In this document: positions 10,615-62,572 of the stretch, piece by piece
Numbering within the stretch: the stretch's first letter is position 1
Layout: every line of letters starts with the position of its first letter
From: a virus
Virus record (IMG/VR): IMGVR_UViG_3300012952_000020
Location: 1-64,000 of that record
DNA: 64,000 bases
Strand: one strand, 5' to 3'
Translations under genes and position numbers: made by a program
The notes under the pieces: generated by a model
Databases searched by the model: none
Told to the model about the DNA's origin: nothing
Seen by the model: only the letters and a program-made list of their open reading frames with translations

Positions 10615-11072
10615 CACTCACCTCCCGTCTGCGCCATCGTCGGTGCGTCCAGAATGTCACTCGTATCGACTTTCACATCGCCGTAAAGCCAGCCCATCGC
10701 CCGCTTCATGATCTGTGCGTCTGCCCTGACAATAGCCCCGATGCTAATGCCAAAAACCCTGTGGGTAACGTCCCGATCCCACTGGGAGAAGAACGCATCC
10801 GTGTTGGGAATCTCCGCAGGGTTTCCTCCCTCCGGTCCTGCGTGGCACTGCCTCGGGGCGTGAGTAGCCTCGTAGCAACGCAGGTCTGCCCTGCTCAACA
10901 GGACCGTATCAATGTCCAGCCCTTCGTGCATGACTGGTGTTTGCGTGGCGATTGAAACCTGACGGTTATCCATCTGAAAGACGATGTTCGCCGTCTTCCC
11001 CCACGGTGTGACTATTGGTTGGTGTCCAAAGACCTTCCAGCCCTTGCTCTCATTCGACTCTGATTCTGACAT
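10614..11072 (-). CDS. Hypothetical protein
   Basis: GGAGG RBS before ATG 11072. Confidence 0.7.
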   Translation of the reverse strand: MSESESNESKGWKVFGHQPIVTPWGKTANIVFQMDNRQVSIATQTPVMHEGLDIDTVLLSRADLRCYEATHAPRQCHAGPEGGNPAEIPNTDAFFSQWDRDVTHRVFGISIGAIVRADAQIMKRAMGWLYGDVKVDTSDILDAPTMAQTGGE

Positions 11073-11110
11073 AATGTCCTCCCGGCCTGCGCCGTTCGTT
11101 GGTGGGAGTC

Positions 11111-11142
11111 GGTGAACCGATACACCATTGTACCGATTCACC
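11111..11142 (-). other. 14-bp intergenic RNA hairpin
   Basis: GGTGAATCGGTACA-ATGG-TGTATCGGTTCACC (two G-U pairs). Confidence 0.6.
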
Positions 11143-11155
11143 TTTCCCTTGTTTG

Positions 11156-11611
11156 TCAAGTACCTCGTTCCAAGACCTTGACCATTTCAGCTTGACCATC
11201 CTCATGCTTGACGCATCCGATGACCGTTCCATGTCGGAACTCGAACTCGGTTCCGTCCGACAGATTGTGCCGGATCTTGTCCTCGCTGTTGAACGGGACG
11301 TATGCGAGCAGGTTCCTGACTCCGGTAGAATCCTCTACCACCATCTTCGCCGCTCCCCACTTCAACCCGTTTTCCTTCGGGTCGATGTCCTCTGACGCAA
11401 AGTACGCTCCGAGGAAGTGACAGAACTCGCACCGAGCCTCCGGGTTGACCAGATACTTCGGGAGCAACGGGGTGCCTCGATCTCCGGGGTGTCTGCCCTG
11501 TTTCTTGATGACGATGGTTCCAGTTTCCTGACCACAGGCACCGCAGGCTTCCATGAACGGATGACCGACTGGTGCGCGCATGAAATCCTCTTGGGTTGCG
11601 TAGTTATTCAC
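11156..11611 (-). CDS. Hypothetical zinc-finger protein
   Basis: CGAC and CEFC motifs; GTG start. Confidence 0.65.
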   Translation of the reverse strand: MNNYATQEDFMRAPVGHPFMEACGACGQETGTIVIKKQGRHPGDRGTPLLPKYLVNPEARCEFCHFLGAYFASEDIDPKENGLKWGAAKMVVEDSTGVRNLLAYVPFNSEDKIRHNLSDGTEFEFRHGTVIGCVKHEDGQAEMVKVLERGT

Positions 11612-11789
11612 CTCGCACCCCCTCGACCTTCCGCTTCGCCAAAATGTCCTTGAGCGTAGCCTCGGGTCCGTAGACCTCAACCATCTGATTCAACAGGTTC
11701 GACACGTCCTTGGCTTTGCCTGCCATCCGCATGGACCGAAGCCCCATGTCTACCTTGACCCTTCCTCGTCCGTTGCGTGACTCAGCCAT
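11604..11789 (-). CDS. Hypothetical protein
   Basis: 61 aa; AGGAGG RBS. Confidence 0.6.
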   Translation of the reverse strand: MAESRNGRGRVKVDMGLRSMRMAGKAKDVSNLLNQMVEVYGPEATLKDILAKRKVEGVRGE

Positions 11790-11985
11790 TGGACACCTCC
11801 TTGGCTTGCGCCTCGCTGCGGGAAACGTCAGCGGTCTTGACTGCGTACTGCATACCGCCTTCTCCGCATCGCTTCACCTTTACGGTGTCACCGGGTACGA
11901 ATCCCTCGTTCTCCAACCTTGACCTATGCTCGCTGGCTTCCGCGTACGAGTTGTAGGTCGCCTGAATCTTCCATGTTCTACTCAT
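11782..11985 (-). CDS. Hypothetical protein
   Basis: AGGAGG RBS before ATG 11985. Confidence 0.65.
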   Translation of the reverse strand: MSRTWKIQATYNSYAEASEHRSRLENEGFVPGDTVKVKRCGEGGMQYAVKTADVSRSEAQAKEVSNG

Positions 11986-12026
11986 GGTTTCCTCCTGCCT
12001 TTCGGCGTTCACTGAATCGGGTGTCT

Positions 12027-12094
12027 GCCTCGTCAGCACCGGGGTAACAAATCCCCGATGTACCCGTCGCCTCCTTGGGACGACGAGTTTCGGC
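12027..12094 (-). ncRNA. Hammerhead ribozyme, type II (HHR-1)
   Basis: gcc GAAA CUCGUCGUC-loop-GGCGACGGG UA/ CAUCGGGG-loop-CCCCGGUG CUGACGA ggc: full core, three stems; predicted cut after 12061 (GUA). Confidence 0.85.
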
Positions 12095-12102
12095 TATGGT
12101 TT

Positions 12103-12378
12103 CTACGATTGCTTGAAGTACAGGATCTTCCAATCCGAGTCAGGTTCCGTCGCCTTGGACAGCCACCGCTTCAAGGTCTGCTTTTGCACACCCATCATGT
12201 CCGATGCCATGTCCAAGTTGCCGCCCTTCGCCTCGATGTGGTTGAGAGCACCGATTGCCCTCTCCCGCTGATACTGGGTGTAGCTGATCCTTCTCGCCAC
12301 ACCGTTCAGCCTTCGTGCGTGTCCGTGCATTTCAATACAGATCGCAATCACCTCGTCGCCGGACAACTTCTTACTCAT
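12103..12378 (-). CDS. HTH-containing protein
   Basis: NLDMASDMMGVQKQTLKRW helix-turn-helix pattern. Confidence 0.6.
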   Translation of the reverse strand: MSKKLSGDEVIAICIEMHGHARRLNGVARRISYTQYQRERAIGALNHIEAKGGNLDMASDMMGVQKQTLKRWLSKATEPDSDWKILYFKQS

Positions 12379-13060
12379 CGCCGCCTTCCTCTACCGCTGG
12401 GTGCCTTGCAGCATCCTCGATAGCCTGACGTTGTTCCTCGATCCGAGCCTTGATTGCCTCCTGTTCTTCACGAACCTCCCAAGGAGGACGTTTCTCAGCC
12501 CGACGCCAATCGTGCTCCCAGCCAGCCCGCATACCCAAAATCGTCTCCTTCGGTACTGCGTGCTCCGTTCGCTCTGCGAGGTCGTGAACCGACAGCCCGC
12601 CGTCCAACATGTCCAAGACGTGAACTCGAACCTCGTGGGCATCTGCCAGTCGGAAGTACGGCTCCATTGTCCACCGCTTGTCGAACGTGTTGTGGACGAC
12701 GATGAGGTCAGCCTTGTTCTCACCAAACAGTCGGTCCACCTCGTCAGCGCACCAGCGATGAGCCTTACCGAGAAGATGACCGCTCCAGCGATACTCGACC
12801 TCTCCGTAAGACGCTGGGTCAAGCCGCTGGTCGTACTGATCCGGGTCTTCGATTGTTGCCATCTGACTACGGCGAACATCAATCACCGGGTCGTCATCCT
12901 TCAACCGCTTCTTCAACCCTTCCGGGGGTGTGCCTTTGTACAGGCACATGTAGTCATCCGCTGACCGCATGAACCTTCGGTCGTTGTCTCCGCAGATCAA
13001 CCTCGCCATTGAGGTCTTTCCTGATCCGCTCAATCCTCTCAACAATATCAACGTCTTCAT
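12371..13060 (-). CDS. P-loop kinase (AAA_33 / N4BP2-like, polynucleotide-kinase type)
   Basis: LILLRGLSGSGKT, SADDY, VVHNTF, HAVPKETI. Confidence 0.8.
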   Translation of the reverse strand: MKTLILLRGLSGSGKTSMARLICGDNDRRFMRSADDYMCLYKGTPPEGLKKRLKDDDPVIDVRRSQMATIEDPDQYDQRLDPASYGEVEYRWSGHLLGKAHRWCADEVDRLFGENKADLIVVHNTFDKRWTMEPYFRLADAHEVRVHVLDMLDGGLSVHDLAERTEHAVPKETILGMRAGWEHDWRRAEKRPPWEVREEQEAIKARIEEQRQAIEDAARHPAVEEGGDE

Positions 13061-14112
13061 ACTTTCTCTCCGATTGTGTGACTGCCGACGGCTCTCGCAC
13101 TGTCGATGGTGCAGTCCTGTTGTTGTTTATCCTGATGCCACTCTACAAAGTTGGGGTGACGGACGGCACCGTTGGGAAAGACTCCCTTTCCGTTCACCTT
13201 GAATACCCTCCCGACGAACTTGCCGGGATTGTCAAACATCTCCGTTCGCTGTGCCTCGGTCAAGCCGGAAACGCGAACCGCCTCCTTCAACTCTCCCTCG
13301 ACGTACAGACCTCCGATGACTGACTTGACCATGCGCCCCTTGTACTTGTCTGCGTTGCTCTGCCGGAATCCCATGCAGACATAATCGACTTCGTACGTGC
13401 GCTTGATTCTCGCCCAGCCCTCTCCGAAGGGTGCCGATCCCTCTTTCAGAATCAGCCCCTCCCAATCCTCTGCCAGAACCCAATCAGCCCAGATTCGCTG
13501 TACCAAGTCCGTGATGCCCTCGTCCCGAGAAGTCCTCCACTGCGGTATGCACTGGATTCGACCTCGCGACGTGACCGACAGGGGATTCGGTGACGAGTGG
13601 GTCGCAATCGACGGAAGCCCCGCTGACGGCTTGCCGAAAACAACCTGCTCCAGAAACGCCCGCCGTGTCCATTGGGGCTTGTCTCGGAAACACTGCCCTC
13701 CGAACTCCACCAAGTCGAAGGCCATGAACTGACCTGTCAACTTTCGCCGCTTCGACCAGTTGGTGCCGAACATGAACTCCCCGTGAAGCACGATCCGACT
13801 CCCGCCGACTGCGTACCCCGTGTCGTCCTCTCCCGAGTCCCGAAAGTAGCCCCAAGGACTGAATGGGACCGCCAGCTTGAACTCATCCTTCAAGGTTCCG
13901 TTTCGGGAGTAGACCTTGACCGAGGTTCCCTCAATCACCATCTGCCCCCAGATGCCATCGCCTTTCAACTCAACGACGTTCCAAGGTGGCTCCGGGTTGC
14001 CCTTCCACTGGAGGACGCTCTGCCCTGCCGCCTCGTACTTGAATCGTACGTTGGTGAACTTCGGACGGTTCAGAACCATCCCCTCGTAGACCTTCTGCTT
14101 GGTTCCCATCAC
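13057..14112 (-). CDS. ATP-dependent DNA ligase
   Basis: Motif I ELKGDG, LHGE, AFDL, EGLILK, OB-fold C-terminus with RHP. Confidence 0.85.
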   Translation of the reverse strand: MMGTKQKVYEGMVLNRPKFTNVRFKYEAAGQSVLQWKGNPEPPWNVVELKGDGIWGQMVIEGTSVKVYSRNGTLKDEFKLAVPFSPWGYFRDSGEDDTGYAVGGSRIVLHGEFMFGTNWSKRRKLTGQFMAFDLVEFGGQCFRDKPQWTRRAFLEQVVFGKPSAGLPSIATHSSPNPLSVTSRGRIQCIPQWRTSRDEGITDLVQRIWADWVLAEDWEGLILKEGSAPFGEGWARIKRTYEVDYVCMGFRQSNADKYKGRMVKSVIGGLYVEGELKEAVRVSGLTEAQRTEMFDNPGKFVGRVFKVNGKGVFPNGAVRHPNFVEWHQDKQQQDCTIDSARAVGSHTIGEKV

Positions 14113-14534
14113 TCACCTCCTTCGACTGGTCGTCGGTACTCGGTGGGGAGTTCCACGACCTCCCCGTCATTTGTGACGCCGAGGTGCTCGTGCTCGTTCT
14201 CCCCTCCCCAGTCATTCAAGTCCTCTGCAATCTCCGGGATCGTGAACATCACGTTTGCCCGAACAGCGCCGTTGCTTTCGGGGTCCATCGCCGTGATGGT
14301 CCTTGCCCCGATGTACCCGTCGTACCTCGCCAGCGCCAAACTGTCGTTCTCACCTTCCAGCAACTCCCGCATACGCTCTGCGAGCCTTGCAACGGCGATG
14401 CCCATGTCCGTCAGACGTTTGCGTGGGGAGTAGTCGAGGAAGTCCTCACCGCACTCCGTAAACTCCCCACTCATTTCATCGACCAGCCTATCGACCATGA
14501 TCTCAATGTCCTCTCGTTCCAAGTTGCTACTCAT
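14109..14534 (-). CDS. Hypothetical protein
   Basis: 141 aa, translationally coupled. Confidence 0.65.
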   Translation of the reverse strand: MSSNLEREDIEIMVDRLVDEMSGEFTECGEDFLDYSPRKRLTDMGIAVARLAERMRELLEGENDSLALARYDGYIGARTITAMDPESNGAVRANVMFTIPEIAEDLNDWGGENEHEHLGVTNDGEVVELPTEYRRPVEGGE

Positions 14535-15265
14535 TTCGCACCTCGCTTGCCGAACGCCTGCTCGACTTCTTCCTGTGACTCAAACCGTTTGAGGACCATT
14601 TGGGTCAACGTACCCTCTGGCGTGATTGCCGCCTCCGTCAGACTCTCTTTCAAGACTTGAAGGAACGGTGTGCTCGCTATCCGGGCAACACCGTTAGCCT
14701 TGTTCGCCTTGGCACAGTGCTCCGGGTCTTCCGTCGAGAACCACGTACGGCAGTTCCAAGGACGGTGCTCGTAGACTGAACAGGCACCATCGACCAACAG
14801 TGGACAGGGCGTGTTCGATGCCTGCGCTTCCCTGAACATCGCCTTCGCCGTGCGCTTGTCATCCTTCTCCAGCATCCTTCGGACATGCCGTGGACCGAAC
14901 AACGCTTTTCGGAAGTAACCTTCCTTGTCCTTGATTGGCGACTGCCCAGCGAACCGTTCCATCCACTCTGACATGTTGTCCTTGACCCGAAGACGAACTG
15001 GCTCCGGCAGGTTGTGGATTGCCACCGTCAGGACAATCGCCTCTGCCGGATTGATCTCGACGCGCTCGTAGCAACAGGCTGTGCAGCCTACGCCGAGGCA
15101 CTTGATTTCCGAGAGGCTTCCGTCTGCCTTCATCCTCTCGACCATACGGTCTGCCTGTTGAAACAGACCCATCACGAACTCGTAGACACGCTCCGTGATG
15201 TCCTCTCCGTCTGGTCCTTCGACCAGCGGCTTGCCGCCCACTCGGGGCATAATCAACTCATCCAT
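14531..15265 (-). CDS. YkgJ-family cysteine-cluster protein
   Basis: CLGVGCTACC ... CPLLVDGACSVYEHRPWNCR. Confidence 0.85.
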   Translation of the reverse strand: MDELIMPRVGGKPLVEGPDGEDITERVYEFVMGLFQQADRMVERMKADGSLSEIKCLGVGCTACCYERVEINPAEAIVLTVAIHNLPEPVRLRVKDNMSEWMERFAGQSPIKDKEGYFRKALFGPRHVRRMLEKDDKRTAKAMFREAQASNTPCPLLVDGACSVYEHRPWNCRTWFSTEDPEHCAKANKANGVARIASTPFLQVLKESLTEAAITPEGTLTQMVLKRFESQEEVEQAFGKRGAK

Positions 15266-15524
15266 TGGACACTCCTTTCAGTCCGGCTTGCTCGATGCTC
15301 GCCATCTTCCTGTTGAACTCGACCTTGGTGATGTGGGTTCCGATTGCCGAGCGCACGGTCAAGAAGATGCGCCAAGGTGTCATACCGAACTCGATGGTTG
15401 CCTGATCTACGAGATTCACCAGCGCCCTTGTTTGCTCGTCGGTGGAGCAGGGCCAAGCGAACCTCAACCAATCTCCGAACGTCGGGGCCTTGCCCAACGT
15501 CGGTTCCTTGTGTTTCGTACTCAT
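15258..15524 (-). CDS. Hypothetical protein
   Basis: GGAGG RBS, ATGA coupling. Confidence 0.6.
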   Translation of the reverse strand: MSTKHKEPTLGKAPTFGDWLRFAWPCSTDEQTRALVNLVDQATIEFGMTPWRIFLTVRSAIGTHITKVEFNRKMASIEQAGLKGVSNG

Positions 15525-15925
15525 GCTGTCCTCCACTGCACTGTGGAGCGGAGCCATTTCCAAAGCCGGATGTACCAAGGGAGCCTGACGACCAGCGGTG
15601 CCGGGTGCGTCTTGCTCTCCTTCCACTCAAGGAACGGGACGCCGGGATCGACTCTCCTATACATGGCGTACTCCCTGCGGAGCATCGCCGTTCGACTGAC
15701 CGTTCGGTACGACCAGCCTCCGTTGCCGTGGTACTTGCTCCACCCGTGTTGGGGAATACCGACCTGCAACCCAGCCTTGACGCACATGTCCCATACGCCT
15801 GACTTGGTTCGCCGTTGTCCTCCAGGTCCAGTGCTGGTGACTGGACCGAACACGAATGAACCGTCCTCCAACTCCGTCAGCCAAGGGATGCCTGTGTTCG
15901 TTGGTTCTCCAGTAGCCGCCCTCAT
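15521..15925 (-). CDS. Hypothetical protein
   Basis: 134 aa, coupled. Confidence 0.6.
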   Translation of the reverse strand: MRAATGEPTNTGIPWLTELEDGSFVFGPVTSTGPGGQRRTKSGVWDMCVKAGLQVGIPQHGWSKYHGNGGWSYRTVSRTAMLRREYAMYRRVDPGVPFLEWKESKTHPAPLVVRLPWYIRLWKWLRSTVQWRTA

Positions 15926-16116
15926 TGGACACCTCCCTTCTCCAAGTCACGCTTGTAGGACTGTGCCTGCATCCGTGAGCACCCACTGACGATGGGTCGG
16001 GCTTCTCCGTGAAAGACAACCCCTCGGTGTCCTTTGGGGAGATCCGACTTGCGGAAGACCGCCCAACTGTAACTGTCATCGCCATTGAACTTTCGCAACG
16101 TGTATGCCGGTTTCAT
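15922..16116 (-). CDS. Hypothetical protein
   Basis: MKPAYTLRKFNGDDSYSWAVF...; coupled. Confidence 0.6.
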   Translation of the reverse strand: MKPAYTLRKFNGDDSYSWAVFRKSDLPKGHRGVVFHGEARPIVSGCSRMQAQSYKRDLEKGGVQ

Positions 16117-16343
16117 TCGACACCCCCGTTCTGCTCGACGTAGCACTCCTCGTACGCTGCCTTGTGACCTTCGTACGTGAAGTTGACTCCTGCATCTTCC
16201 AGCTTCGCCGTGGCACAGTCGTAAGCCGACCACCAGCGAGCCTCCTTTGCCGGTTGCGCTACCAGAATCCAGTAGCCCAATCCGACAACCACGATGGCTG
16301 CAAAGAACAGCCCTGCCAACAGTTCCTTTGTGCGCTCGCTCAT
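16113..16343 (-). CDS. Small membrane protein
   Basis: N-terminal hydrophobic helix. Confidence 0.65.
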   Translation of the reverse strand: MSERTKELLAGLFFAAIVVVGLGYWILVAQPAKEARWWSAYDCATAKLEDAGVNFTYEGHKAAYEECYVEQNGGVE

Positions 16344-16600
16344 GCTTCACCTCCACCGAAATACTCTGTGGAGTAGGTGACGATCCAAGGAGCGTTGCCC
16401 GCACCTTTCTGCATCGCCTTGTAGATGCACGTTTCACCGAGGAACGCGACGATGGTTCCTGCGTCCTTGTCGTGCTCGACCTTGAAGCCCTCAAGCCACA
16501 CCATGTGCTTCACGAGGTCCATCACCTCCTTGTGGGTTCCGAGGCACGAACGCCTTGGGCGTACTGGACTGTTTGCAAATCCTTTTACTGCTGCTTCCAT
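16340..16600 (-). CDS. Hypothetical protein
   Basis: GGAGG RBS. Confidence 0.65.
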   Translation of the reverse strand: MEAAVKGFANSPVRPRRSCLGTHKEVMDLVKHMVWLEGFKVEHDKDAGTIVAFLGETCIYKAMQKGAGNAPWIVTYSTEYFGGGEA

Positions 16601-16655
16601 TTTACTATCCTCCGTCCTCTCGGACTTCTTCGGGTAGGTTTACCCTTGTTTGTCA

Positions 16656-16721
16656 ATGACCTGTCTCATCAGCACGGGGAGGTCATCTTCCGTGGACTCC
16701 CCCCGAAGGGGGAGTTTCGAC
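16656..16721 (-). ncRNA. Hammerhead ribozyme, type II with pseudoknot (HHR-2)
   Basis: guc GAAA CUCCCCC UUCG GGGGGAG UC/ CACGG..AUGACCU..CCGUG CUGAUGA gac AGGUCAU; loop I pairs 7 bp with the 3' tail; cut after 16695 (GUC). Confidence 0.92.
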
Positions 16722-16723
16722 TG

Positions 16724-18112
16724 TTACTTCTTCCGCTGCTGCAACAGGTGAATCATCGCCTGCGTAGCAAGGTCCAACTGCCGACGCTCATGGGCAACGT
16801 CACCGTCATCCCCTGCGAGGTGAGCGACCTCGTGGAACATGACCTCGATGGTGTCTGCCAAGTTGCCGACCGTCTTCCGACTCAGGCAGATGACCTTCTC
16901 CCCTGACTTGAAGGTGCCTCGCACATCATCACCCTCGAACTCCACGACGTTCACATGTGAGAGCACGTCGTACTCGAAAGTGTCCGTTGCGTCCGTTGCC
17001 TGAATCAACCTGCACGCATCGTCGATGTTCTCCTGCTCCTGATCCGTCAGGTCATCCCAACTGTACGTCTGCGTGACCGTCATCCTCCCGTCCCGCTTGG
17101 CGAGGTGGAAGCCTTTGATCCGGGTGTCCTGCTCCAGAACCTCCAATCGGCTTCTGCCTACCACAACGCCCTTCTTGCCAACGTGTGCCAGCTCCTTGGC
17201 TTGGGACAGGTTCTCAACTGGAACTGCGCCTTCACCGTGCTTCCCGAGGAACCGATCTCCGATGTGCTTGACCACTGTGGAATCGTTGACGAAAGCGTAA
17301 GCCTGCTGCGCCTCCATCGCATTGGGATTGTCCAGCACCGCTTCGACGTGATCCCCGAACTCATCCGGCTCATCCCTGAAAGCGGCGACGGTCAGCTTGC
17401 CCAGCGCCCACTTCAAATCCCACTCGTCCACCAACTCACGGTCACGATTGGTTGCCCGTCGGAGGTCGTACCCGTAGGACAGATTGTCCGGTCGCTGCAT
17501 CACCAGCACGCCCTTGTTGAAGATCATGCCCTTGAACTCAGGCTGGAGTAGAATCCGCTCGCCCTCGTACCCGACCGTCTTCACCTTCTCCGGGTCGAAC
17601 GCCTCGTTGGTGAACAGGAACCGATTGCGGAGAGCATCGTACTCCTCCTGCGATACCCCGTACACCTTGACCAAGAACCCTTCACGCGGGTTCTTCAACT
17701 TTCGTGTACGGATGTGGAGCGTGTGACAGTCGAGGTCGCCGTGATGCCTAATCTCGGGAATCCACTGCTCGTCCATGTTCCGAATCACCATGTGGTATCG
17801 GCTCGACCGAGCGATGGTCAACATCGCCATCGGCAGTCCCTCTCCGAACTCACCAATCAGGTTTGCATCACTGCGGGAACCCGAATGGCCCATCGCCATC
17901 GCCTCTGCCGGAACCTTGATACCGAAGTTGTAGATGTTGACGCAGCCGACGAATCCCTGATGCTCCTGCTTCGGGTGAAACTCGACTTTCAGCTTGCCGA
18001 GTCCGTCATGCCTGCTCTCCTCTCCGTCCTTGCCGTTCGCCATCAACTCTCGCAGTGCGTGGTTGATGTTCCATCCCGGCTGATAGTTCATATCCAGTGT
18101 CGTCTTGATCAT
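16724..18112 (-). CDS. GHKL (HATPase-like) ATPase with C-terminal HExxH metallopeptidase-like domain
   Basis: RELMANGKD N-box, IGEFGEGL G-box, C-terminal MFHEVAH..H. Confidence 0.75.
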   Translation of the reverse strand: MIKTTLDMNYQPGWNINHALRELMANGKDGEESRHDGLGKLKVEFHPKQEHQGFVGCVNIYNFGIKVPAEAMAMGHSGSRSDANLIGEFGEGLPMAMLTIARSSRYHMVIRNMDEQWIPEIRHHGDLDCHTLHIRTRKLKNPREGFLVKVYGVSQEEYDALRNRFLFTNEAFDPEKVKTVGYEGERILLQPEFKGMIFNKGVLVMQRPDNLSYGYDLRRATNRDRELVDEWDLKWALGKLTVAAFRDEPDEFGDHVEAVLDNPNAMEAQQAYAFVNDSTVVKHIGDRFLGKHGEGAVPVENLSQAKELAHVGKKGVVVGRSRLEVLEQDTRIKGFHLAKRDGRMTVTQTYSWDDLTDQEQENIDDACRLIQATDATDTFEYDVLSHVNVVEFEGDDVRGTFKSGEKVICLSRKTVGNLADTIEVMFHEVAHLAGDDGDVAHERRQLDLATQAMIHLLQQRKK

Positions 18113-18168
18113 GCTACTTTTCCTCCGTCCGTACCCTCCCCTCGGAGGGTGTTGGACTTCTATGGTTA

Positions 18169-18230
18169 CTCCCCTGTCTCATCAGTACAGGTAGGGGAAA
18201 CTTCCTGTAGACCCCGTTAGGGGTTTCGAC
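18169..18230 (-). ncRNA. Hammerhead ribozyme, type II with pseudoknot (HHR-3)
   Basis: guc GAAA CCCC UAAC GGGG UC/ UACAGG..UUCCCCU..CCUGUA CUGAUGA gac AGGGGAG; 7-bp loop I/tail pairing; cut after 18210 (GUC). Confidence 0.92.
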
Positions 18231-19258
18231 TATTTCTTGCTCGCCTTGCGCCTGATGTACTTGGCGTTCGCAGCCACTCGCTGCGACCTCGACTTCTTCT
18301 CGACCTTGACCGTTTCCTTCGCCACTCGAATCTTGGCTCCTGCGCCCTTCTCGATTGCGAAAGCGTGTGCCTTCGCCTCGGCATCGGCTCCGGTGAACCT
18401 CCACCACTTCCGACCGCCCTTGACCTTCACCTCGTACCCGACGACCTTCTCGTACGTCTCCGTCGCTGGTCTGCGCTTGGGCAACGCCGACTGCCCCTTG
18501 GCATCTGCGTACCTTGCCCGCTTCCCACTGTGCCAGCACTTCTTGGGACCGACTCGCTTCTTGTGAGCCTCGACATCCTCGGGGGCGAAGAACTCTGCCG
18601 TTGCCACCAACCCTGTCGTCTTCTTGCTCCAGTCCCACACGGCTGGGAGGACTGCCAACTTCCTTCCCCACTTGTCGGTACGCCACTTGGGTTCGTTGAT
18701 GTTGTACTTGGGTACGTCTGCGGCTTCAATAACTGGGATGCGTACGAACACGATGGCGGGTGACTCGCAGGCGACCACGACCTCCAGAATGTACTTGTCA
18801 GCACCGGGCATCCGACTGATTCGGTGGGCGAAGTCCTTTCGGAAGTAGTCCTTGACCACGACCCACCGGCTACCGAGAAGGCACTTGTTTCCGCTCACCG
18901 TATCGGCAACCTTCTCCGTGCGCTTCGCCCTCGCAGCCTTCTTCCGACGACGGGTTGCTGTGGCCCGCTTCGCTGCTGACCGTCGGACCTTCTTCATCAC
19001 GAACTTCTCAGCCTCGGTGTACACCTCGTCCTGCGTGTCGTGGTCTGCCTTGTTCACTGCGGCGACTGCTGCGGTGACCAACTGGTAGAATGTTTCCTCG
19101 TCCCTGTCGGGATTGCACTTGGGGTCGTTCTCGTTCGCCTTGTGGAACTTCGCACCCCACTTGGCGATCCACTTGTTGTGTCGCTCCGTGGGGGTCACGC
19201 CACGGGAGGTGGTCTGGTCAGTCCCCAAACCGGGCATTGAGTTTCCGAGGCCGATCAT
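18230..19258 (-). CDS. Lys/Arg-rich hypothetical protein
   Basis: 342 aa, GGAGG RBS. Confidence 0.75.
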   Translation of the reverse strand: MIGLGNSMPGLGTDQTTSRGVTPTERHNKWIAKWGAKFHKANENDPKCNPDRDEETFYQLVTAAVAAVNKADHDTQDEVYTEAEKFVMKKVRRSAAKRATATRRRKKAARAKRTEKVADTVSGNKCLLGSRWVVVKDYFRKDFAHRISRMPGADKYILEVVVACESPAIVFVRIPVIEAADVPKYNINEPKWRTDKWGRKLAVLPAVWDWSKKTTGLVATAEFFAPEDVEAHKKRVGPKKCWHSGKRARYADAKGQSALPKRRPATETYEKVVGYEVKVKGGRKWWRFTGADAEAKAHAFAIEKGAGAKIRVAKETVKVEKKSRSQRVAANAKYIRRKASKK

Positions 19259-19509: not shown

Positions 19510-19538
19510 AATATAGCATGTTTACAGGGGTTTGTCAA
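19510..19538 (-). promoter_or_regulatory. Strong sigma70-type promoter of the early operon
   Basis: TTGACA-N17-TATATT with TG extension; A-rich upstream. Confidence 0.8.
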
Positions 19539-38358: not shown

Positions 38359-39099
38359 CTAACACCCGTCAGGTGTAAGGTCACGAAGCCTCCGAGTCAT
38401 TGACTCTACTCTGGAGGTGTACGTTTCATTGTCCACGCACCTGTTACCCTGATTGTAGTGACAGATGCCTTTCCTTCTGTCCCGTAGTCTACGGATGAAC
38501 CTCGCACATACGCCTGCGGAATACTCTACGCTTTGTAGCTCCGCGCACTCGTCAGCGACGGTCCTTCCAGAATCTCGTAGCCAACTCCGATTGCCGGTGT
38601 AGCCATACGAATACTTTGCCTGCTGTTGAAACATCCCGCACGACCTTCCTTGGTCGCCAGTGACGTTCTCCGTCCACCGGCTCTCGACATACCCAACTGC
38701 TGCCAGTTCGTATACGTCAACACCTTCGTACAAGGCTGCGAGGATCATCGCCGCTGCGAACCTGCGAGCGTCCTCCAACTCCAACCTCGGTTGGACCTCC
38801 TGCATGGCGTTAGCCAAATAGTACACGTAGTCCCTGACTCCTGCCTCATGTGCAGGGATGGACGTGTCTACGCAGCACTCTGGACACTTAGCACAGTGGT
38901 CCTCGACGTAGCGTTGATGCCAGTTCTCCTGCTCCGGGTCAGGCTCCGGTTCGGAAACTGGTTCCGAGGTGGGTGCCTCTGTGGTCGGTTCGGGAGGACT
39001 CTCCGGTTCCTCGCCTCCGCAACTGCCAAGGTAGCTAATGATGCCTACCGTCAACCCTGTCACTATTCCGTACACAAAGTACCGTGCTATCGCCTTCAT
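38359..39099 (-). CDS. Membrane-anchored/lipoprotein lytic transglycosylase (SLT-like)
   Basis: Hydrophobic N-terminus ending LGSC, Pro/Glu linker, VESRW, GMFQ, HYN. Confidence 0.65.
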   Translation of the reverse strand: MKAIARYFVYGIVTGLTVGIISYLGSCGGEEPESPPEPTTEAPTSEPVSEPEPDPEQENWHQRYVEDHCAKCPECCVDTSIPAHEAGVRDYVYYLANAMQEVQPRLELEDARRFAAAMILAALYEGVDVYELAAVGYVESRWTENVTGDQGRSCGMFQQQAKYSYGYTGNRSWLRDSGRTVADECAELQSVEYSAGVCARFIRRLRDRRKGICHYNQGNRCVDNETYTSRVESMTRRLRDLTPDGC

Positions 39100-56878: not shown

Positions 56879-59800
56879 CTACTGATGGCCCAAGATGTGG
56901 AATGTCTCAAGAGCCTCTCCGTGGTGTTCTCCAGTAGCATCCTCACCGTAGGACGGACGCTTCTCGTTCGGACGGTTCACCTCAACAGTAGCGTTGATGT
57001 GGCAACCACTGAACGGTGGGTTCACGTTATTCGGTACTGTTCCGTTGATCATCCGCTGTCCGTATCGCCCTGTGTATAGCACGAACAGAATCTCATGATC
57101 TCCGGGTGCGGTCAACTCCTCCACTGTGGGCATCTGATCCATCAGTGTTCCAATGTCGCCTTCCTCATCCAGACCATGTGCTGCTGCGTTCTCTCGGACG
57201 TACCTCAACTCGGACACCAGATCGATCTCGATGCCACAGTTGTTCTGCAACCTGTCCGTTTGAGCAACCTTGACCAGCGCACCATCACCGACACCGTGTT
57301 GGGTGTCCTGATAGGTGGCAGAGGCAAAGTCGAACGGGTCAGCGACATAGCAGTCACCGTGTGGCGCATTGGCGAACTCGTTATTGGCGAACTCTGCTGC
57401 ACTCACATCCGTTTCCGTCATCGGGTCGGTATCGTACAAGTACCCGGATGATGCAGGGACTCCCTCAACGTAGCCGCCGAGGTTGTCACTGATCATGGGG
57501 TACAGGTGGCCGGTGTACGCGTGATTGGGGTGGGCGTTGAATGGACCACCCCCACCGCCAGCAGCCGGGTGGATAGACTGGAAGTGAAGGAACGGCTTGT
57601 CTTCCATAGTGTCGGGTGCTGTGGGCCACTGGACCGCAGAACCGTTCTGCCTATCTCGGACAAGAAACAACTCCGTGAGGGATTTGGGAGCACTCGAACG
57701 ACGAGTGTTGGGGTGTCCACCGCCTTGATAGGACGGGGAGTAACCACCACCGGGGCGAGCATGAAGGACGCGGAAAGAACAGTTCCAAAGTAGCTTTTGC
57801 GCCAGACCCGCATTGAACAACGCAGTGTACGTGTTCATCAGGGGTTGCCACTCTACATCAGCAGTTCCGTTCCACGCAGCCTGCACCTCATGTTCCATTA
57901 GCTGGAAGGCATCGTGACAGGTGTTGCGGGGATCGCCGTCTTCAAGTGTAGACGGTACTGTGTCGAAGCCGTTTGGCAGGTTGGTGCCTGTCTTCCAATC
58001 GAACGAACCCATCGAGAACGTGAGTGGGTTTGCGTAGAAGGTACGAGCGCCATCGTAGCTGGAGTCGAGCACGATACCCGTACCAGTGTCACCGATGAAC
58101 TGCGTATCCACGTCGAAGTCAGGCCCTTGGCCGGGGATTGCGTTTCCGGGTCCGTCAAGCATGTCGCCGTTGAACTCTGAATCGTCATCATCAGACACAG
58201 ACCAAGGGGAGGTGGCATCCCAAGTCAGCTTCAACACATCCGCTGCTTCCATAGCATCACAGATAGCGGCCAAGGTCGTGGTGCCAATCTTGGCACGCAT
58301 GACCGGAGCCTGCCAGTCGTAAGCTGACCGTGCGAACAGTTGGTTGTCGTCGGGGAACCCGATGTAGCCACGGTTGTAGCCTTGAGTGCCTTGACCAAAT
58401 CCAACGCCAGTGTAGTACGGACCAGTTGCTTCCGCTGCGGAGTACCAGTTGTTCTGGATCTCCACAATCTTGTCGATGAGCGGGAAGCCTTTGAACAAGT
58501 CCTCTCCTTCGGAGGACGACGGGTGGGTACGGAACACGGGATGTAGATCCCACATATCGCCGCCCGTGTTCTCCGAGTAGTACCCCGAGTCGTCGTAGTA
58601 AATGTCACCGGAGTTCTCGCCCTTCAAGTACCACTTGAACGCAGGCATGAACGTAGGACCGGGCTTACCGTAGACACTGAATCCGGGGTACGCAAGCTGA
58701 CTCGTCACACCGTCAGGAACAAACGGGAACGCTGCCAGATTGTTCGGGACTGTGATAGTCGCCCCATCCACGTTGACCGTACCAGAGTACGTTGTAGACG
58801 CCGTGCCGGGGTTGGTGTTGTGATTACCAAGACGAGGAATCTGCGACCATAGCTGCGTCGTCCCCAGTTCGTTTGATGACGCGAAGTCGTCCAGACCCCA
58901 GTAGTCCAAATCGTTTACCGATTTCAGACCTTGTGTGGATGACTGCTCACCCAAGAACTGATCCGTGGGTTGCGTCGTGATCGTGGGGATAATCAGTGAC
59001 CGCTCACCCCATCGGTTGTAGACGGGATAGGCTACGCCATCAAACTGTGGGTAGGAATCCGCGCCGCCGAACAGGGAAGCGTTCTCGTCCCAGTCACCGT
59101 GAGGGAACCTAATGGATTCCATGAACGGGTGATACCAGTGGACGAATGGTTGGAACGCATCGGGGATCGGAGTGTCGCGCCAATCTCGGTCGCCAATCTC
59201 CAAAGCCACGTTGGGGTCCATTGTTCCGAAGGCTGCGTTTTCGCCGCTGTTACCTCCGGGTTGCCCGAGGTCCGGTGACGTAGCGATGATCTTGGGAAGA
59301 CCGTCCTCATCAATCAGGTTCTCCGTAATCCACTCCAAGTTGACTCGTTCAATGAACGAGAGCAGCCCGTCAAGCATGGACATTCGACCTTGCAGGACGT
59401 TGTGCTGGTGCTTGGGCAGGGTTGCCCAGTGCGTCAGAGACAACGGTTCAAACCGAACGAACAGGTTGAGAGTGTCAACCAAAGCGTTGGTCTTTGTGCC
59501 TGTGGGAGCACCGTCAGCGTCCAGCGTTTCGGGGCCGGGATAGTAGTCGCCAATGTGATAACGAAGGCGAGCCACGGTGCATCGGTTCTCCCATGTGTCG
59601 AGTGGGTTCACCTCGTCCGTGGGGAGAGTAGGGAACCGGCCCCAAGGACCAGCTTCCATATCCATACGCACGTCAGCCTCGATAACGTCCTGATTCACGT
59701 CTGCGGGGTTTGACACATCCGCTACGTTGATAGCGTGATGACCCCAACGGATCAGATCGTTAGCCTCCAGACCTTCGCCCGGAGTTTCATCAGCGTCGCC

Positions 59801-62572
59801 TTCACCCGGTGGGAAGTTGGACAAGCTGGCAGGCGTGGCGACTGTGCCGTCCGAAAGGACACCAGCTCCAACTCCGTAAGACTGTAGATTCACTGGGGAG
59901 TTGCCGTGCTCGTCTTCCTCGGGGTGTCCGTACGGTTGGCTAATGTCCTGACCACTGACCATAGAGGTGTCGAGGAACGCTGCCGCCGAAGCCATGATGA
60001 AGCCGTCGTAGGAGTTGCCGCTAACATCGCCAGCGCCGTCCTGTGACTGCTTCCAAGTACGAGGTAGTGAATCAGCCTCGGTGGTGTCGTAGTACATCAC
60101 CCGCCAAGGCGCAGCCACATGGTAGTTGAACATGTCCATCTGGACATGCCCTTGTGTCTTGATTGCCAGCTTTCGGAACATCAACGCTTGCCGCATGAGT
60201 TCCGCTTGTCGCTGACCGTCAGCCGTTCCACGCTGCGTGAAGTCCGGCTCCGTGGATGAACCCGTTGCCTTTGCATAGTCCTGTGCTGCAAAGTTGTAGA
60301 AGCCCCAGCCTTGCTCACTGTCTACGGTGATCTCATCACCGCCACGAGTAATATACTTACCGTATCCGGGGATGAACTCTCCAGACCACCAGTGACCTGA
60401 TCGAACGCCATCCTCGATTGTGACTACACCTGTGCCTGCGTCCTGCGAGACACCTCCGACCAGCGGGTCGATTGAGCATACGGTTCCGACAGACTTATCG
60501 GTCGGGTTGAGTGACGTGTTGTCAGGAGTGTACGCGAACACTTCCGCAGACTGTCCCGAAGCGAACAGCGCCGTAGTATCTCCGTTTGCAACGTACTGAT
60601 TTGACGAGGGTAGTCCGTAGGCTGTGTCCTCGATGAGGTTGCCGGAGTTGTCACGCTGCTGCCCGAAAGCCCACTGCGCTGACATACCCATCTGGTGTCC
60701 AAGACCCGACTGGTTCAGATACCAGTTGGTAAGACTGGAGATCCCGCAACCGAGGGACTGGTACTGGAGAGGGATGTTTCCGTGTCGGTCATACAGCGCC
60801 GTGATGCCACGAGCAATCGGCGCACCGCCGCCCGCTTTCTCAGCCGTAGTCATGCCTACGACCGCTGTAGCGTTTACAAGTGAGCGAGACATTTCCGCTA
60901 CACCCATGACAATCTTGGGTGGCTGCATCATGCCGCCCATAAACAGGAGGCCAGTATCTCCGGGGTTCATGCCCCCATTAGTGACGATGTTGTTTTCACG
61001 ACCGTACATTCCCACCATTGGGATAGACATGATTCCGCCTCCATCATCCCAAAGAGGGTGCAGGAGGCCGGGAATAAAGTACGGAGATAGAACGTCGTCG
61101 TCGTGAAGATCCGTGGAGGTTGGGTCCATCCGCTTCCAAGGAGGCATAATCCAAGCGAGCGGTACAATGTGGGACTCTGCCCCGCCACAAGTCTCTTGAA
61201 GCAGACAGTGAGCCGCAGTCCACCAACGGTCAGACGAGAACTCAACGTCGCCTGTCCCGAAGCCTTCCGAAATCTTCATAGCAAACGACGGAGTTGCGCC
61301 GAAGTTGCCGGGGCCTTGATCGAACCACTGTGATACTGCGGTGCCTGACCCGTCGGGGTCAATGGCAGGAACCTGTGTAGCGGTATGCCGCAAAGCCTCG
61401 ATGGGGTCTACTGCATAGTCAACGATCAAGGAGTTACCTACCGAGTGGTAGTGAGGCTCCTTGTTCATGTCATCCAGTAGGCGTGCGAGGTGCCACTCTG
61501 TGATCGGAGACAGACCCGGCATGTCCGTGGTCATGCTCCACTTGGAGAGGCACATACGAACGCAGTAACGAACCTGTGTTCGGTGGGTAGTCTCCATGCC
61601 GAGAGTAACGTCCAGAAGATCCTCATCCTCGTCAGACGAAATGTCCTCATTGAAGACTTGAACGTACATCATCGGGTAGCGCACAAGACCTGCGTAGGTC
61701 TGGTCAGCAGCCTGCGCTCCGGTCATGGCATCGAACTGGGCTTTCCAGTTTACAAGGTCGTTGCCCGGAATGATGTAGTACTCATCACCTTGAGCCAAAG
61801 CAGCCGGTAGATTCGTGAGCCACTGCACAGAGGTAGCCGTGTAACCTGTAATGTCACGGACCTCGCCAGCGTTCGCACCAGTGACGAAATAGATTCGACA
61901 CGCAGACTCTTCTACTCGAAACTGAAAAGCAGCCGGTGTCGCTGTGCCTGCTGGAAGCGGCTCGTCGTGAACCGGACCTGTCGGTCCCGAAACTACAACT
62001 TCACGGTAGCCGCCTGCCTCGGTCGATGTGCCGAGCAGGTTGTGACTTGCCGTGAACATCTTATTCTCATCGAACATTTCGTCGATGAGTCCTGCCCCGG
62101 CTGCCGTGACCTTGCCGTGGAACATGTGGTTAGCCCACGGGCGCATCGTGGCCCCTGCTGCTCCAAGGTCAACGATCCGGTGCCAGTCAAAGATGATCTG
62201 CGATTCCAGATTGGCCGTGTCGATCTCGTTACTGTTGTCGAGCACTCCGAGGGGCGTAAGGAGAGAACCCATCGTGACTGCAAAGTTACAGTTGTTCGCA
62301 TCGACCTCACCCTCGATACCGCTACCTCCGATAGCACGAGAGACTGGTACAACAGTCCACTGCCTGTTACCGAGTACGGTCTGTGGGGTTTGATCGCCGC
62401 GAACAGCCATCTGTGCGACGTGCTTGGTCTGATTAGCTGCCAAGTCCTGTGCGTCGTTCAGATCCACATCGAGGACGGGCGACCCCTGCTGGAAGCGCAC
62501 GTCCTTATAGTTCTTACTCTCGTCAACCGTACCCGTTCTGGACAGGTTCGGCTTGTTTGTAGGGTTTGCCAT
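56879..62572 (-). CDS. Large tail fibre/baseplate-associated protein (DUF6519-like N-terminus)
   Basis: 1897 aa; YKDVRFQQGSPVLDVDLNDAQD and EDEDLLD..ETTHR motifs; Gly/Asp-rich. Confidence 0.75.
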   Translation of the reverse strand: MANPTNKPNLSRTGTVDESKNYKDVRFQQGSPVLDVDLNDAQDLAANQTKHVAQMAVRGDQTPQTVLGNRQWTVVPVSRAIGGSGIEGEVDANNCNFAVTMGSLLTPLGVLDNSNEIDTANLESQIIFDWHRIVDLGAAGATMRPWANHMFHGKVTAAGAGLIDEMFDENKMFTASHNLLGTSTEAGGYREVVVSGPTGPVHDEPLPAGTATPAAFQFRVEESACRIYFVTGANAGEVRDITGYTATSVQWLTNLPAALAQGDEYYIIPGNDLVNWKAQFDAMTGAQAADQTYAGLVRYPMMYVQVFNEDISSDEDEDLLDVTLGMETTHRTQVRYCVRMCLSKWSMTTDMPGLSPITEWHLARLLDDMNKEPHYHSVGNSLIVDYAVDPIEALRHTATQVPAIDPDGSGTAVSQWFDQGPGNFGATPSFAMKISEGFGTGDVEFSSDRWWTAAHCLLQETCGGAESHIVPLAWIMPPWKRMDPTSTDLHDDDVLSPYFIPGLLHPLWDDGGGIMSIPMVGMYGRENNIVTNGGMNPGDTGLLFMGGMMQPPKIVMGVAEMSRSLVNATAVVGMTTAEKAGGGAPIARGITALYDRHGNIPLQYQSLGCGISSLTNWYLNQSGLGHQMGMSAQWAFGQQRDNSGNLIEDTAYGLPSSNQYVANGDTTALFASGQSAEVFAYTPDNTSLNPTDKSVGTVCSIDPLVGGVSQDAGTGVVTIEDGVRSGHWWSGEFIPGYGKYITRGGDEITVDSEQGWGFYNFAAQDYAKATGSSTEPDFTQRGTADGQRQAELMRQALMFRKLAIKTQGHVQMDMFNYHVAAPWRVMYYDTTEADSLPRTWKQSQDGAGDVSGNSYDGFIMASAAAFLDTSMVSGQDISQPYGHPEEDEHGNSPVNLQSYGVGAGVLSDGTVATPASLSNFPPGEGDADETPGEGLEANDLIRWGHHAINVADVSNPADVNQDVIEADVRMDMEAGPWGRFPTLPTDEVNPLDTWENRCTVARLRYHIGDYYPGPETLDADGAPTGTKTNALVDTLNLFVRFEPLSLTHWATLPKHQHNVLQGRMSMLDGLLSFIERVNLEWITENLIDEDGLPKIIATSPDLGQPGGNSGENAAFGTMDPNVALEIGDRDWRDTPIPDAFQPFVHWYHPFMESIRFPHGDWDENASLFGGADSYPQFDGVAYPVYNRWGERSLIIPTITTQPTDQFLGEQSSTQGLKSVNDLDYWGLDDFASSNELGTTQLWSQIPRLGNHNTNPGTASTTYSGTVNVDGATITVPNNLAAFPFVPDGVTSQLAYPGFSVYGKPGPTFMPAFKWYLKGENSGDIYYDDSGYYSENTGGDMWDLHPVFRTHPSSSEGEDLFKGFPLIDKIVEIQNNWYSAAEATGPYYTGVGFGQGTQGYNRGYIGFPDDNQLFARSAYDWQAPVMRAKIGTTTLAAICDAMEAADVLKLTWDATSPWSVSDDDDSEFNGDMLDGPGNAIPGQGPDFDVDTQFIGDTGTGIVLDSSYDGARTFYANPLTFSMGSFDWKTGTNLPNGFDTVPSTLEDGDPRNTCHDAFQLMEHEVQAAWNGTADVEWQPLMNTYTALFNAGLAQKLLWNCSFRVLHARPGGGYSPSYQGGGHPNTRRSSAPKSLTELFLVRDRQNGSAVQWPTAPDTMEDKPFLHFQSIHPAAGGGGGPFNAHPNHAYTGHLYPMISDNLGGYVEGVPASSGYLYDTDPMTETDVSAAEFANNEFANAPHGDCYVADPFDFASATYQDTQHGVGDGALVKVAQTDRLQNNCGIEIDLVSELRYVRENAAAHGLDEEGDIGTLMDQMPTVEELTAPGDHEILFVLYTGRYGQRMINGTVPNNVNPPFSGCHINATVEVNRPNEKRPSYGEDATGEHHGEALETFHILGHQ

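Follow-up and report, generated by a model that had tools for sequence, protein, structure and literature searches.

Results

A Candidate Hammerhead Ribozyme in the Spacer Downstream of a Gene With a GHKL-Type N-Terminus

The DNA examined here is the first 64 kilobases (kb; 64,000 nucleotides, hereafter the window) of the 77.5-kb IMG/VR record IMGVR_UViG_3300012952_000020, which represents an uncultured marine phage of lytic appearance. On a crude open reading frame (ORF) map all of its genes lie on the minus strand, which is thus the coding strand. Between the stop codon of a gene for a 462-amino-acid (aa) protein and the ATG (16600) of an 86-aa ORF lies a 123-nucleotide (nt) spacer, and this spacer holds HHR-2, a match to the Rfam family Hammerhead_II (RF02276) that runs from 16722 to 16655 on the minus strand. 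Its features, and those of its surroundings, are listed in Table 1. HHR-2 is very probably a real ribozyme, self-cleavage itself being a prediction, and its probable role is to process a polycistronic phage transcript. Beside it lies a probably independent copy of a promoter-type element that would be weak, factor-dependent or decayed. The cleavage event, the extent of the transcript and the consequences for the mRNAs are what we infer from the sequence.

Table 1. Features of the HHR-2 locus, of the other hammerheads in the phage and of related loci; positions are those of the window unless a locus is named.
Feature	Position	Strand	Evidence or remark
HHR-2, complete type II hammerhead	16655..16722	−	cmscan, model positions 1–66; also recovered by our own descriptor
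Stem II 3′ strand, GUC	16719..16721	−	pairs with GAC 16665–16663; 3-base-pair (bp) open stem
Core GAAA (G12 A13 A14 A15.1)	16715..16718	−	Rfam alignment and sequence
Stem III hairpin	16696..16715 (16715–16708/16703–16696)	−	8 bp; UUCG loop 16707–16704, C-G closed
Cleavage triplet GUC	16697–16695	−	sequence
C17 of GUC	16695	−	predicted self-cleavage 16695/16694, from family chemistry and Rfam alignment position
Stem I hairpin, CACGG 16694–16690/CCGUG 16677–16673	16673..16694	−	5 bp, 12-nt loop AAGAUGACCUCC
Pseudoknot 5′ strand AUGACCU, in loop I	16680..16686	−	7 bp with tail
Core CUGAUGA	16666..16672	−	Rfam alignment and sequence
Stem II 5′ strand, GAC	16663..16665	−	Rfam alignment and sequence
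Pseudoknot 3′ strand AGGUCAU	16656..16662	−	directly 3′ of stem II; GGUCA doubles as GGT-n-n flank of the repeated motif
TTGACAAAC copy, −35-like, without recognizable −10	16648..16656	−	TTGACA perfect, 16656–16651
Leader hairpin GGGUA-AACC-UACCC	16632..16645	−	5 bp; at the expected −10 place; same arms found in plus-strand scan
Leader hairpin GUCC-GAGA-GGAC	16614..16625	−	4 bp; just before the Shine-Dalgarno sequence
Shine-Dalgarno GGAGGA 16613–16608 and ATG 16600–16598 of the 86-aa ORF	16598..16613	−	sequence
TAA stop of the 462-aa gene	16726–16724	−	2 nt ahead of stem II
Upstream gene, 462 aa	16724..18112	−	GHKL-type ATPase N-terminus and invariant HExxH...D.G...H; bracketed by HHR-3 and HHR-2
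HHR-3	18231..18168	−	29.5 bits; 6-bp pseudoknot UCCCCU/AGGGGA
HHR-1	12095..12019	−	34.7 bits; CUGACGA core and GUA triplet; potential pseudoknot no longer than 3 bp
Hammerhead in locus L125	1416–1499		38.0 bits; 13 nt past the stop of a 44%-identical homologue
Hammerhead in locus L129	2386–2461		39.8 bits; at another gene's stop, ∼1 kb (one gene) upstream of the homologue
cattTATACTTGACAAAC-...-TATACT elements in locus L127	2364 and 7225	+	sequence

The cmscan score of HHR-2, 40.1 bits, exceeds the RF02276 gathering score of 37 by a small margin. It is the sole match above a gathering score in the window, with an E-value of 1.1e-4 when the window is searched with 4227 families and of 3.1e-8 when the genome is searched with this family alone, and none of 14 control genomes scored above the RF02276 cut-off. 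Every invariant core base agrees with the consensus (CUGANGA, GAAA, and the UH cleavage dinucleotide), and the core-closing pairs 10.1-11.1, 1.1-2.1, and 15.1-16.1 are present as G16665-C16719, C16694-G16673, and A16715-U16696. The full-length model alignment gives a type II topology, with stems I and III closed by loops and stem II open. Stem III reads CUCCCCC-UUCG-GGGGGAG plus the A15.1-U16.1 pair. Loop I and the 3′ tail form a perfect 7-bp pseudoknot, AUGACCU/AGGUCAU, at offset 0 from stem II; a helix of this length arose in 59 of 20,000 shuffles of the loop and tail (p about 0.003), and 135 of 9140 25-mers from the genome, substituted for the tail, could form one with the loop. The CUGAUGA/GAAA/GUC core, the cUUCGg-capped stem III and this pseudoknot had all been named in the original prediction, and all are found in the minus-strand sequence; the strand, which that prediction left unstated, can now be added.

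Some weaker cmscan matches in the window, to sR30, c4-a1b1 and Ocean-VII, fell below threshold, as did a Fluoride riboswitch match at 38984–39054 on the plus (non-coding) strand (22.9 vs. 34 bits), which is probably noise.

HHR-2 as a Member of a Large Viral Class

A core pattern with the stem II of HHR-2 (GUCGAAAC...GUC...CUGAUGAGAC) matched at least 119 viral stretches. Among 80 of these we assembled a class sample of 89 hammerheads at 71 loci, each with both stems of at least 4 bp; as a positive control, our own descriptor recovered HHR-2 and HHR-3. A perfect pseudoknot of at least 5 bp was present in 43 of the 89, and in each of these its offset from stem II was 0 or 1; a stop triplet lay no more than 12 nt upstream in 82. 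Loop and tail covary across the class: 42 of 87 distinct matched loop/tail pairs could form at least 5 bp, compared with 3.1% of 7392 mismatched pairs, and 30 different tails were represented. UUCG was the commonest stem III loop, found in 11 of the 43 members with such a pseudoknot.

The geometry of HHR-2 falls inside the range of the class in its 5-bp stem I, in the loop I nucleotides that flank the pseudoknot (3 on the 5′ side and 2 on the 3′ side), and in its UUCG loop III. Relative to the typical member, its pseudoknot is longer (7 bp vs. the usual 5–6) and its stem I shorter with a larger loop (5 bp and 12 nt vs. a mode of 6 bp and 10 nt). The tail AGGUCA recurs in 5 of the 89 members, also without TTGACA; a perfect TTGACA within 20 nt past stem II was found in only one. 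Because AGGUCA is a common tail of the class, a promoter need not have shaped the tail of HHR-2.

The same material contained a dense case: seven hammerheads with a GUC/GAC stem II occur in 3 kb of one viral contig (L207:8402-11317), a gene array punctuated by ribozymes.

Sister Hammerheads and Leaders

The phage carries three hammerheads of like build on its coding strand, HHR-3, HHR-2 and HHR-1, each of which begins 0–3 nt past a stop codon. HHR-2 and HHR-3 have identical stem II sequences and leaders of similar length, 62 nt (16601–16662) and 63 nt (18113–18175), respectively, on the minus strand. Both leaders end in the arrangement GAAGUCC...hairpin...GGACGGAGGA-7/8 nt-AUG, and the two may be paralogous modules. 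At about twice the median distance from hammerhead to start codon in viral contigs (27.5 nt), both are long. In the predicted fold of the fragment downstream of the cleavage site, the AUGACCU/AGGUCAU helix can persist as a 5′ hairpin while the Shine-Dalgarno sequence is unpaired. A search for minus-strand terminator-like sites in 11000–19000 found none.

A Repeated Promoter-Like Motif

The 9-mer TTGACAAAC is the most frequent on the coding strand of the genome. The window contains 23 exact minus-strand copies (from 5007 to 63197) and three on the plus strand; over the whole record there are 26 on the coding strand, the additional ones at 68972, 72660 and 77066, and three on the other. With up to one mismatch allowed, 36 matches were found (shuffle mean 15.5, maximum 25). 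An extended consensus of about GGT-T-c-TTGACAAAC-AAgG-n-aAAa (also written GGTTcTTGACAAACAAgGnaAAa) surrounds it, with GG at −5/−4 in 13 of the 23 window copies and GGT in 11. The crude ORF map puts 17 of the 23 between genes, in most cases at a distance of a few to 60 nt past a stop, and the other six appear "inside" ORFs only because the first possible start was taken.

Several properties of these copies recall promoters. TAnnnT follows at 16–18 nt in 6 of the 23 (background 1.6%) and TGnTA in 8 (background 0.66%), and three copies take the form of TTGACA, a 17-nt spacer, and TATATT, TATATT or TATAAT. An element of the same kind occurs in L127, a 61.8-kb contig that encodes a protein 38% identical to the 462-aa product and has two near-identical intergenic copies of TTGACAAAC-17 nt-TATACT; the TTGACAAAC form of a −35 element is thus common to divergent phages. 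The sequence evidence supports the view that the TTGACAAAC family behaves as a sigma-70-type −35 element.

A simple promoter reading does not fit every copy. By our own criteria about 10 of the 26 coding-strand copies have a sigma-70-type −10 and 16 lack one. Two copies stand only 22 nt before an ATG led by a Shine-Dalgarno sequence, one of these being the start of DNA polymerase A (Pfam match from residue 8), so that a transcription start ∼35 nt past the −35 would fall inside the two genes. The copies without a −10 and the two near an ATG suggest two classes of promoter, or a class dependent on a factor. A second element shared downstream of the 16 was sought by k-mer enrichment, which gave nothing convincing.

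Two further ideas about the motif were rejected. One was that the ribozyme takes the place of a terminator hairpin that precedes the other copies: folds of the 50 nt upstream of the 23 copies revealed no overall excess of structure (Mann-Whitney p = 0.37), with strong hairpins upstream of only two. The other was that 19 loci with one match each to GGTWMTTGACAAACMAAG are relatives that share the extended motif. These matches were attributed to chance; 18 of the loci have 32–45% G+C and are unenriched in the 9-mer (one extra copy, on the opposite strand, in L162), and the nineteenth (L158, 56% G+C) has a single copy.

The Motif Copy in Contact With HHR-2

Base 16656 is both the last base of the pseudoknot and the first T of a TTGACAAAC copy, as the original prediction had it for TTGACA (16656–16651). 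That one-base overlap holds for the hexamer; measured against the extended consensus, in which GGT-n-n precedes TTGACAAAC, the overlap is effectively 6 nt, since GGTCA, a part of the pseudoknot strand, also makes up the conserved flank. A class tail of the form AGGnCA by itself provides the GG of this flank.

The prediction also held that a processing site and a putative promoter are packed together here. The abutment itself is borne out and the motif family is promoter-like, but this particular copy has no −10: the best hexamer, CCGAAG, matches at 2 of 6 positions, TG is missing, and a promoter scan found 0 promoter-like sites in 11000–19000. The promoter status of the copy is therefore not shown, and it would be weak, factor-dependent or decayed. 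It is the only motif copy within the 19538–11159 operon. GGTAAACCTAC is common to this copy and the one at 72660. The latter, on the minus strand beyond the window, is likewise without a −10 and is followed by an 8-bp hairpin whose loop contains GAGGAG, immediately ahead of an ATG.

We looked for recurrence of the arrangement in viral contigs with the pattern CTGATGAG-N4-20-TTGACAAAC. It matched at least 119 stretches, which we judged to be chance matches; in the loci examined, 0 of 120 matches had hammerhead stems upstream and none had three or more motif copies. In a limited search of the literature we found no published hammerhead strand that overlaps a promoter −35, and the supplements of Perreault et al. 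(alignments and Figure S4) could hold such cases.

Flanking Genes and Related Loci

The record has an estimated completeness of 78% (CheckV). The one sequencing run listed as containing the stretch, a DNA run from a marine metagenome, may be its source; no RNA run was listed. Mapped products include DNA polymerase A, a DnaB-type helicase, primase, RecA/UvsX, a ligase-like protein and a TGT/DpdA-like protein, among others, and the phage has a 7-deazaguanine gene set. Ligase-like and kinase-like proteins are encoded downstream according to PHROG matches. A 1897-aa ORF (56879–62572, minus strand) had no Pfam-A or PHROG match at E ≤ 0.001.

The 462-aa protein, a member of the small family phrog_6077, has N-terminal motifs of the GHKL type. 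Its homologues are 35–51% identical to it (49–51% for P0002–P0005) and some of them match Pfam HATPase_c; a C-terminal HExxH...D.G...H is common to all 15 aligned sequences.

A blastn search with 15500–18500 against 50,697 phage records gave no match, and no related loci turned up when the 462-aa protein was the only query. Searching with 15 aligned homologues retrieved one viral and 24 metagenome loci, all at 27–47% protein identity. Most of these have another gene immediately behind the homologue, and the genes on that side are unrelated; tblastn searches with the 86-, 134-, 142- and 244-aa downstream products gave no match in the 24 metagenome loci, and only the upstream 342-aa product matched related loci (L126 and L127). 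A cmscan of the 24 metagenome loci (96,983 bases; E ≤ 1) placed hammerheads in two, L125 and L129. These are close copies of each other with compensatory changes in stems I and III, and are unlike HHR-2 outside the core. They may include a 5-bp pseudoknot, UUGAG/CUCAA, that would extend into AAGGA in the ribosome-binding region of the gene that follows. Hammerheads occur near a gene of the 462-aa family in three lineages.

Discussion

Proposed Role of HHR-2

The function that we consider likely for HHR-2 is the processing of a long operon RNA, for which the strong TTGACAAAC-17-TATATT promoter at 19538 is the probable origin and which would read through to the ribozyme. HHR-2 would fold co-transcriptionally, its loop I/3′-tail pseudoknot would dock stems I and II, and the RNA would be cut after C16695. 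Stem III, a GC-rich hairpin with a UUCG cap, would then close the mRNA of the 462-aa gene, which would bear a terminal 2′,3′-cyclic phosphate, and the downstream gene block would receive a structured 94-nt leader with a 5′-hydroxyl. Together, HHR-3, HHR-2 and HHR-1 would split the operon RNA into pieces that could differ in stability and translation. The TTGACAAAC copy at the last pseudoknot base would be a separate module acting at the DNA level, one of 26 promoter-type elements. The two probably form separate modules packed end to end, a matter of tight packing rather than a device; their contact would follow from the dense packing of the 123-nt spacer and from the chance fit of the usual tail AGGnCA to the GGT flank. 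Given 23 copies in ∼90 spacers, a coincidental copy in one of the three hammerhead spacers would be no great surprise, and nothing indicates functional coupling of the ribozyme and the motif.

Several observations weigh against this interpretation. Of the related loci, 16 extend at least 116 nt past the stop of the homologue (two pairs of them are near-duplicates), and only L125 has a hammerhead there, so the position is sporadic and not conserved. Covariation that bears on HHR-2 was seen at the level of the class and between the paralogues HHR-2 and HHR-3 only, and not among orthologues of the locus. The distance from stem II to the start codon, 62 nt, is long for the class (median 27.5 nt, with only one of 70 members at 60 nt or more), and the leader may therefore do more than we assign to it. 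Finally, the motif copy within this leader retains the AAGG and GTAAAC spacer consensus, with GGTAAAC as in strong copies; selection may be maintaining it and a phage factor may render it active, and this would favor a coupling of ribozyme and promoter.

Alternative Explanations

That HHR-2 is inactive, a chance or decayed hammerhead-like sequence and thus mere hairpins in an intergenic spacer, seems very improbable. Its score is just 3 bits over the Rfam threshold and its nested minimum free energy fold is no more stable than those of shuffles (z = −1.04), but a nested fold cannot score a pseudoknotted three-way junction, so the z-score says little. Set against this reading are the full complement of invariant core bases with their correct closing pairs, a 7-bp pseudoknot in the canonical place, two further hammerheads of the same build in the operon, and the absence of scores above the cut-off in the control genomes. 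A different proposal accepts cleavage and concerns its purpose: the HHR-3/HHR-2 pair would free the 462-aa GHKL/HExxH gene as a ∼1.5-kb RNA with 5′-hydroxyl and 2′,3′-cyclic phosphate ends, for separate dosage control or possibly ligation, and the motif would be irrelevant. The identical stem II and the similar 62–63-nt leaders do bracket exactly this gene, hammerheads lie near homologues in L125 (after the gene) and L129 (one gene before), and ligase-like and kinase-like proteins are encoded downstream. Hammerheads that flank single prophage genes have also been described, in the available text of Perreault et al. (2011; PMC3088659), which likewise describes the flanked genes as generally not constant. 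Since 15 of the 16 related loci lack a hammerhead behind the gene, L127 is without one both before and behind it, and we have no evidence for ligation or circles, we give gene excision little weight; it overlaps with the processing-site explanation more than it competes with it.

The alternative with somewhat more in its favor, which we still regard as unlikely, is that ribozyme and motif form a coupled unit, in which the TTGACAAAC copy would serve as an active promoter inside the operon, perhaps dependent on a phage factor, and the hammerhead as a natural insulator. Cleavage of read-through RNA would fall 38 nt before the −35 and the start of new transcripts ∼35 nt after it. The downstream genes would then be carried by two mRNAs that differ in leader and 5′ chemistry, and 6–7 nt would double as pseudoknot strand and promoter flank. 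The promoter-like nature of the motif family speaks for this, as does the geometry: a 17-nt spacer would put the start near 16621, just ahead of the Shine-Dalgarno sequence at 16613–16608. The copy also keeps the extended consensus on both sides (the GGT flank, and AAGG with the GTAAAC spacer), shares GGTAAACCTAC with the copy at 72660, and is the sole one in the operon. A more compact version, a switch whose promoter would probably depend on a phage factor and which we hold to be a little less probable than the coupled unit at its best, gives AGGUCAU/GGTCAT the double role of pseudoknot strand for fast cleavage and promoter flank, and has the downstream block expressed first from cleaved read-through RNA (5′-hydroxyl, 94-nt leader) and later from a short 5′-triphosphate transcript; if true, it would be a natural ribozyme insulator at a promoter. 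Against coupling stand the missing −10 and TG, with a hairpin arm at the −10 place; the absence of TTGACAAAC copies, at up to one mismatch, beside HHR-1 or HHR-3, including in the HHR-3 leader; the single TTGACA near stem II among 89 class members; a pattern scan that yielded chance matches only; and the not unlikely coincidence of a copy in one of three hammerhead spacers.

Comparison With Known Systems

HHR-2 is of a kind already known, since phage hammerheads have been described from 2011 on and both the pseudoknot and the UUCG cap are standard for the family. In its available text, Perreault et al. (2011; PMC3088659) define natural type II hammerheads with a loop I/3′-tail pseudoknot, report that most have a pseudoknot of at least 4 bp between loop I and the nucleotides just 3′ of stem II, and prove its role by disruption and compensatory rescue. 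The same text describes multiple hammerheads that flank genes in prophages and proposes that they process long phage transcripts into mRNAs the length of a gene or an operon. HHR-2 resembles the RF02276 class in its core, permuted topology, pseudoknot start at stem II, phage context past a stop codon, and UUCG cap, and departs from it in a longer leader that contains a TTGACAAAC copy.

The triple hammerheads of Agrobacterium tumefaciens self-cleaved in vivo when a cloned fragment was transcribed in Escherichia coli (PMC3088659, in the part available). As in that triple, the several hammerheads of this phage share a strand and a transcription unit and separate genes whose functions are unrelated. 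Unlike the Agrobacterium prophage, the present genome belongs to an uncultured marine phage of ∼77.5 kb or more that has 7-deazaguanine genes and is known from sequence alone. Three type II hammerheads of Desulfovibrio vulgaris, of the same type as HHR-2 and also next to phage-like genes, were found cut in total RNA by cyPhyRNA-seq (Olzog et al., 2021, PMC8782182, in its available text); the cut is shown there and predicted here. Differential stability or translation of RNA segments is the function proposed for hammerheads in the literature as far as it was available, where it stands as unproven, and a review describes, in the part available, the role of genomically encoded hammerheads in phages as still open.

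A comparison with engineered systems bears on the insulator idea. Synthetic insulators such as RiboJ place a self-cleaving ribozyme between promoter and gene, which standardizes the 5′ end and neutralizes the upstream context. The ribozyme of RiboJ is thus downstream of the promoter, whereas HHR-2 is upstream of its promoter-like motif. From this position HHR-2 would cut only read-through RNA, and RNA initiated at the motif would not contain the ribozyme.

Implications

HHR-2 is a further clean example of a very large class and is unusual only in its direct contact with a promoter-type element and in a leader about twice the usual length. The TTGACAAAC element is useful in its own right for annotating the transcription units of this phage. 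If the motif copy at HHR-2 is inactive, the ribozyme is one more processing site; if it is active, the locus would offer a natural system for asking whether hammerhead cleavage insulates phage transcription units or sets the 5′ chemistry of their mRNAs.

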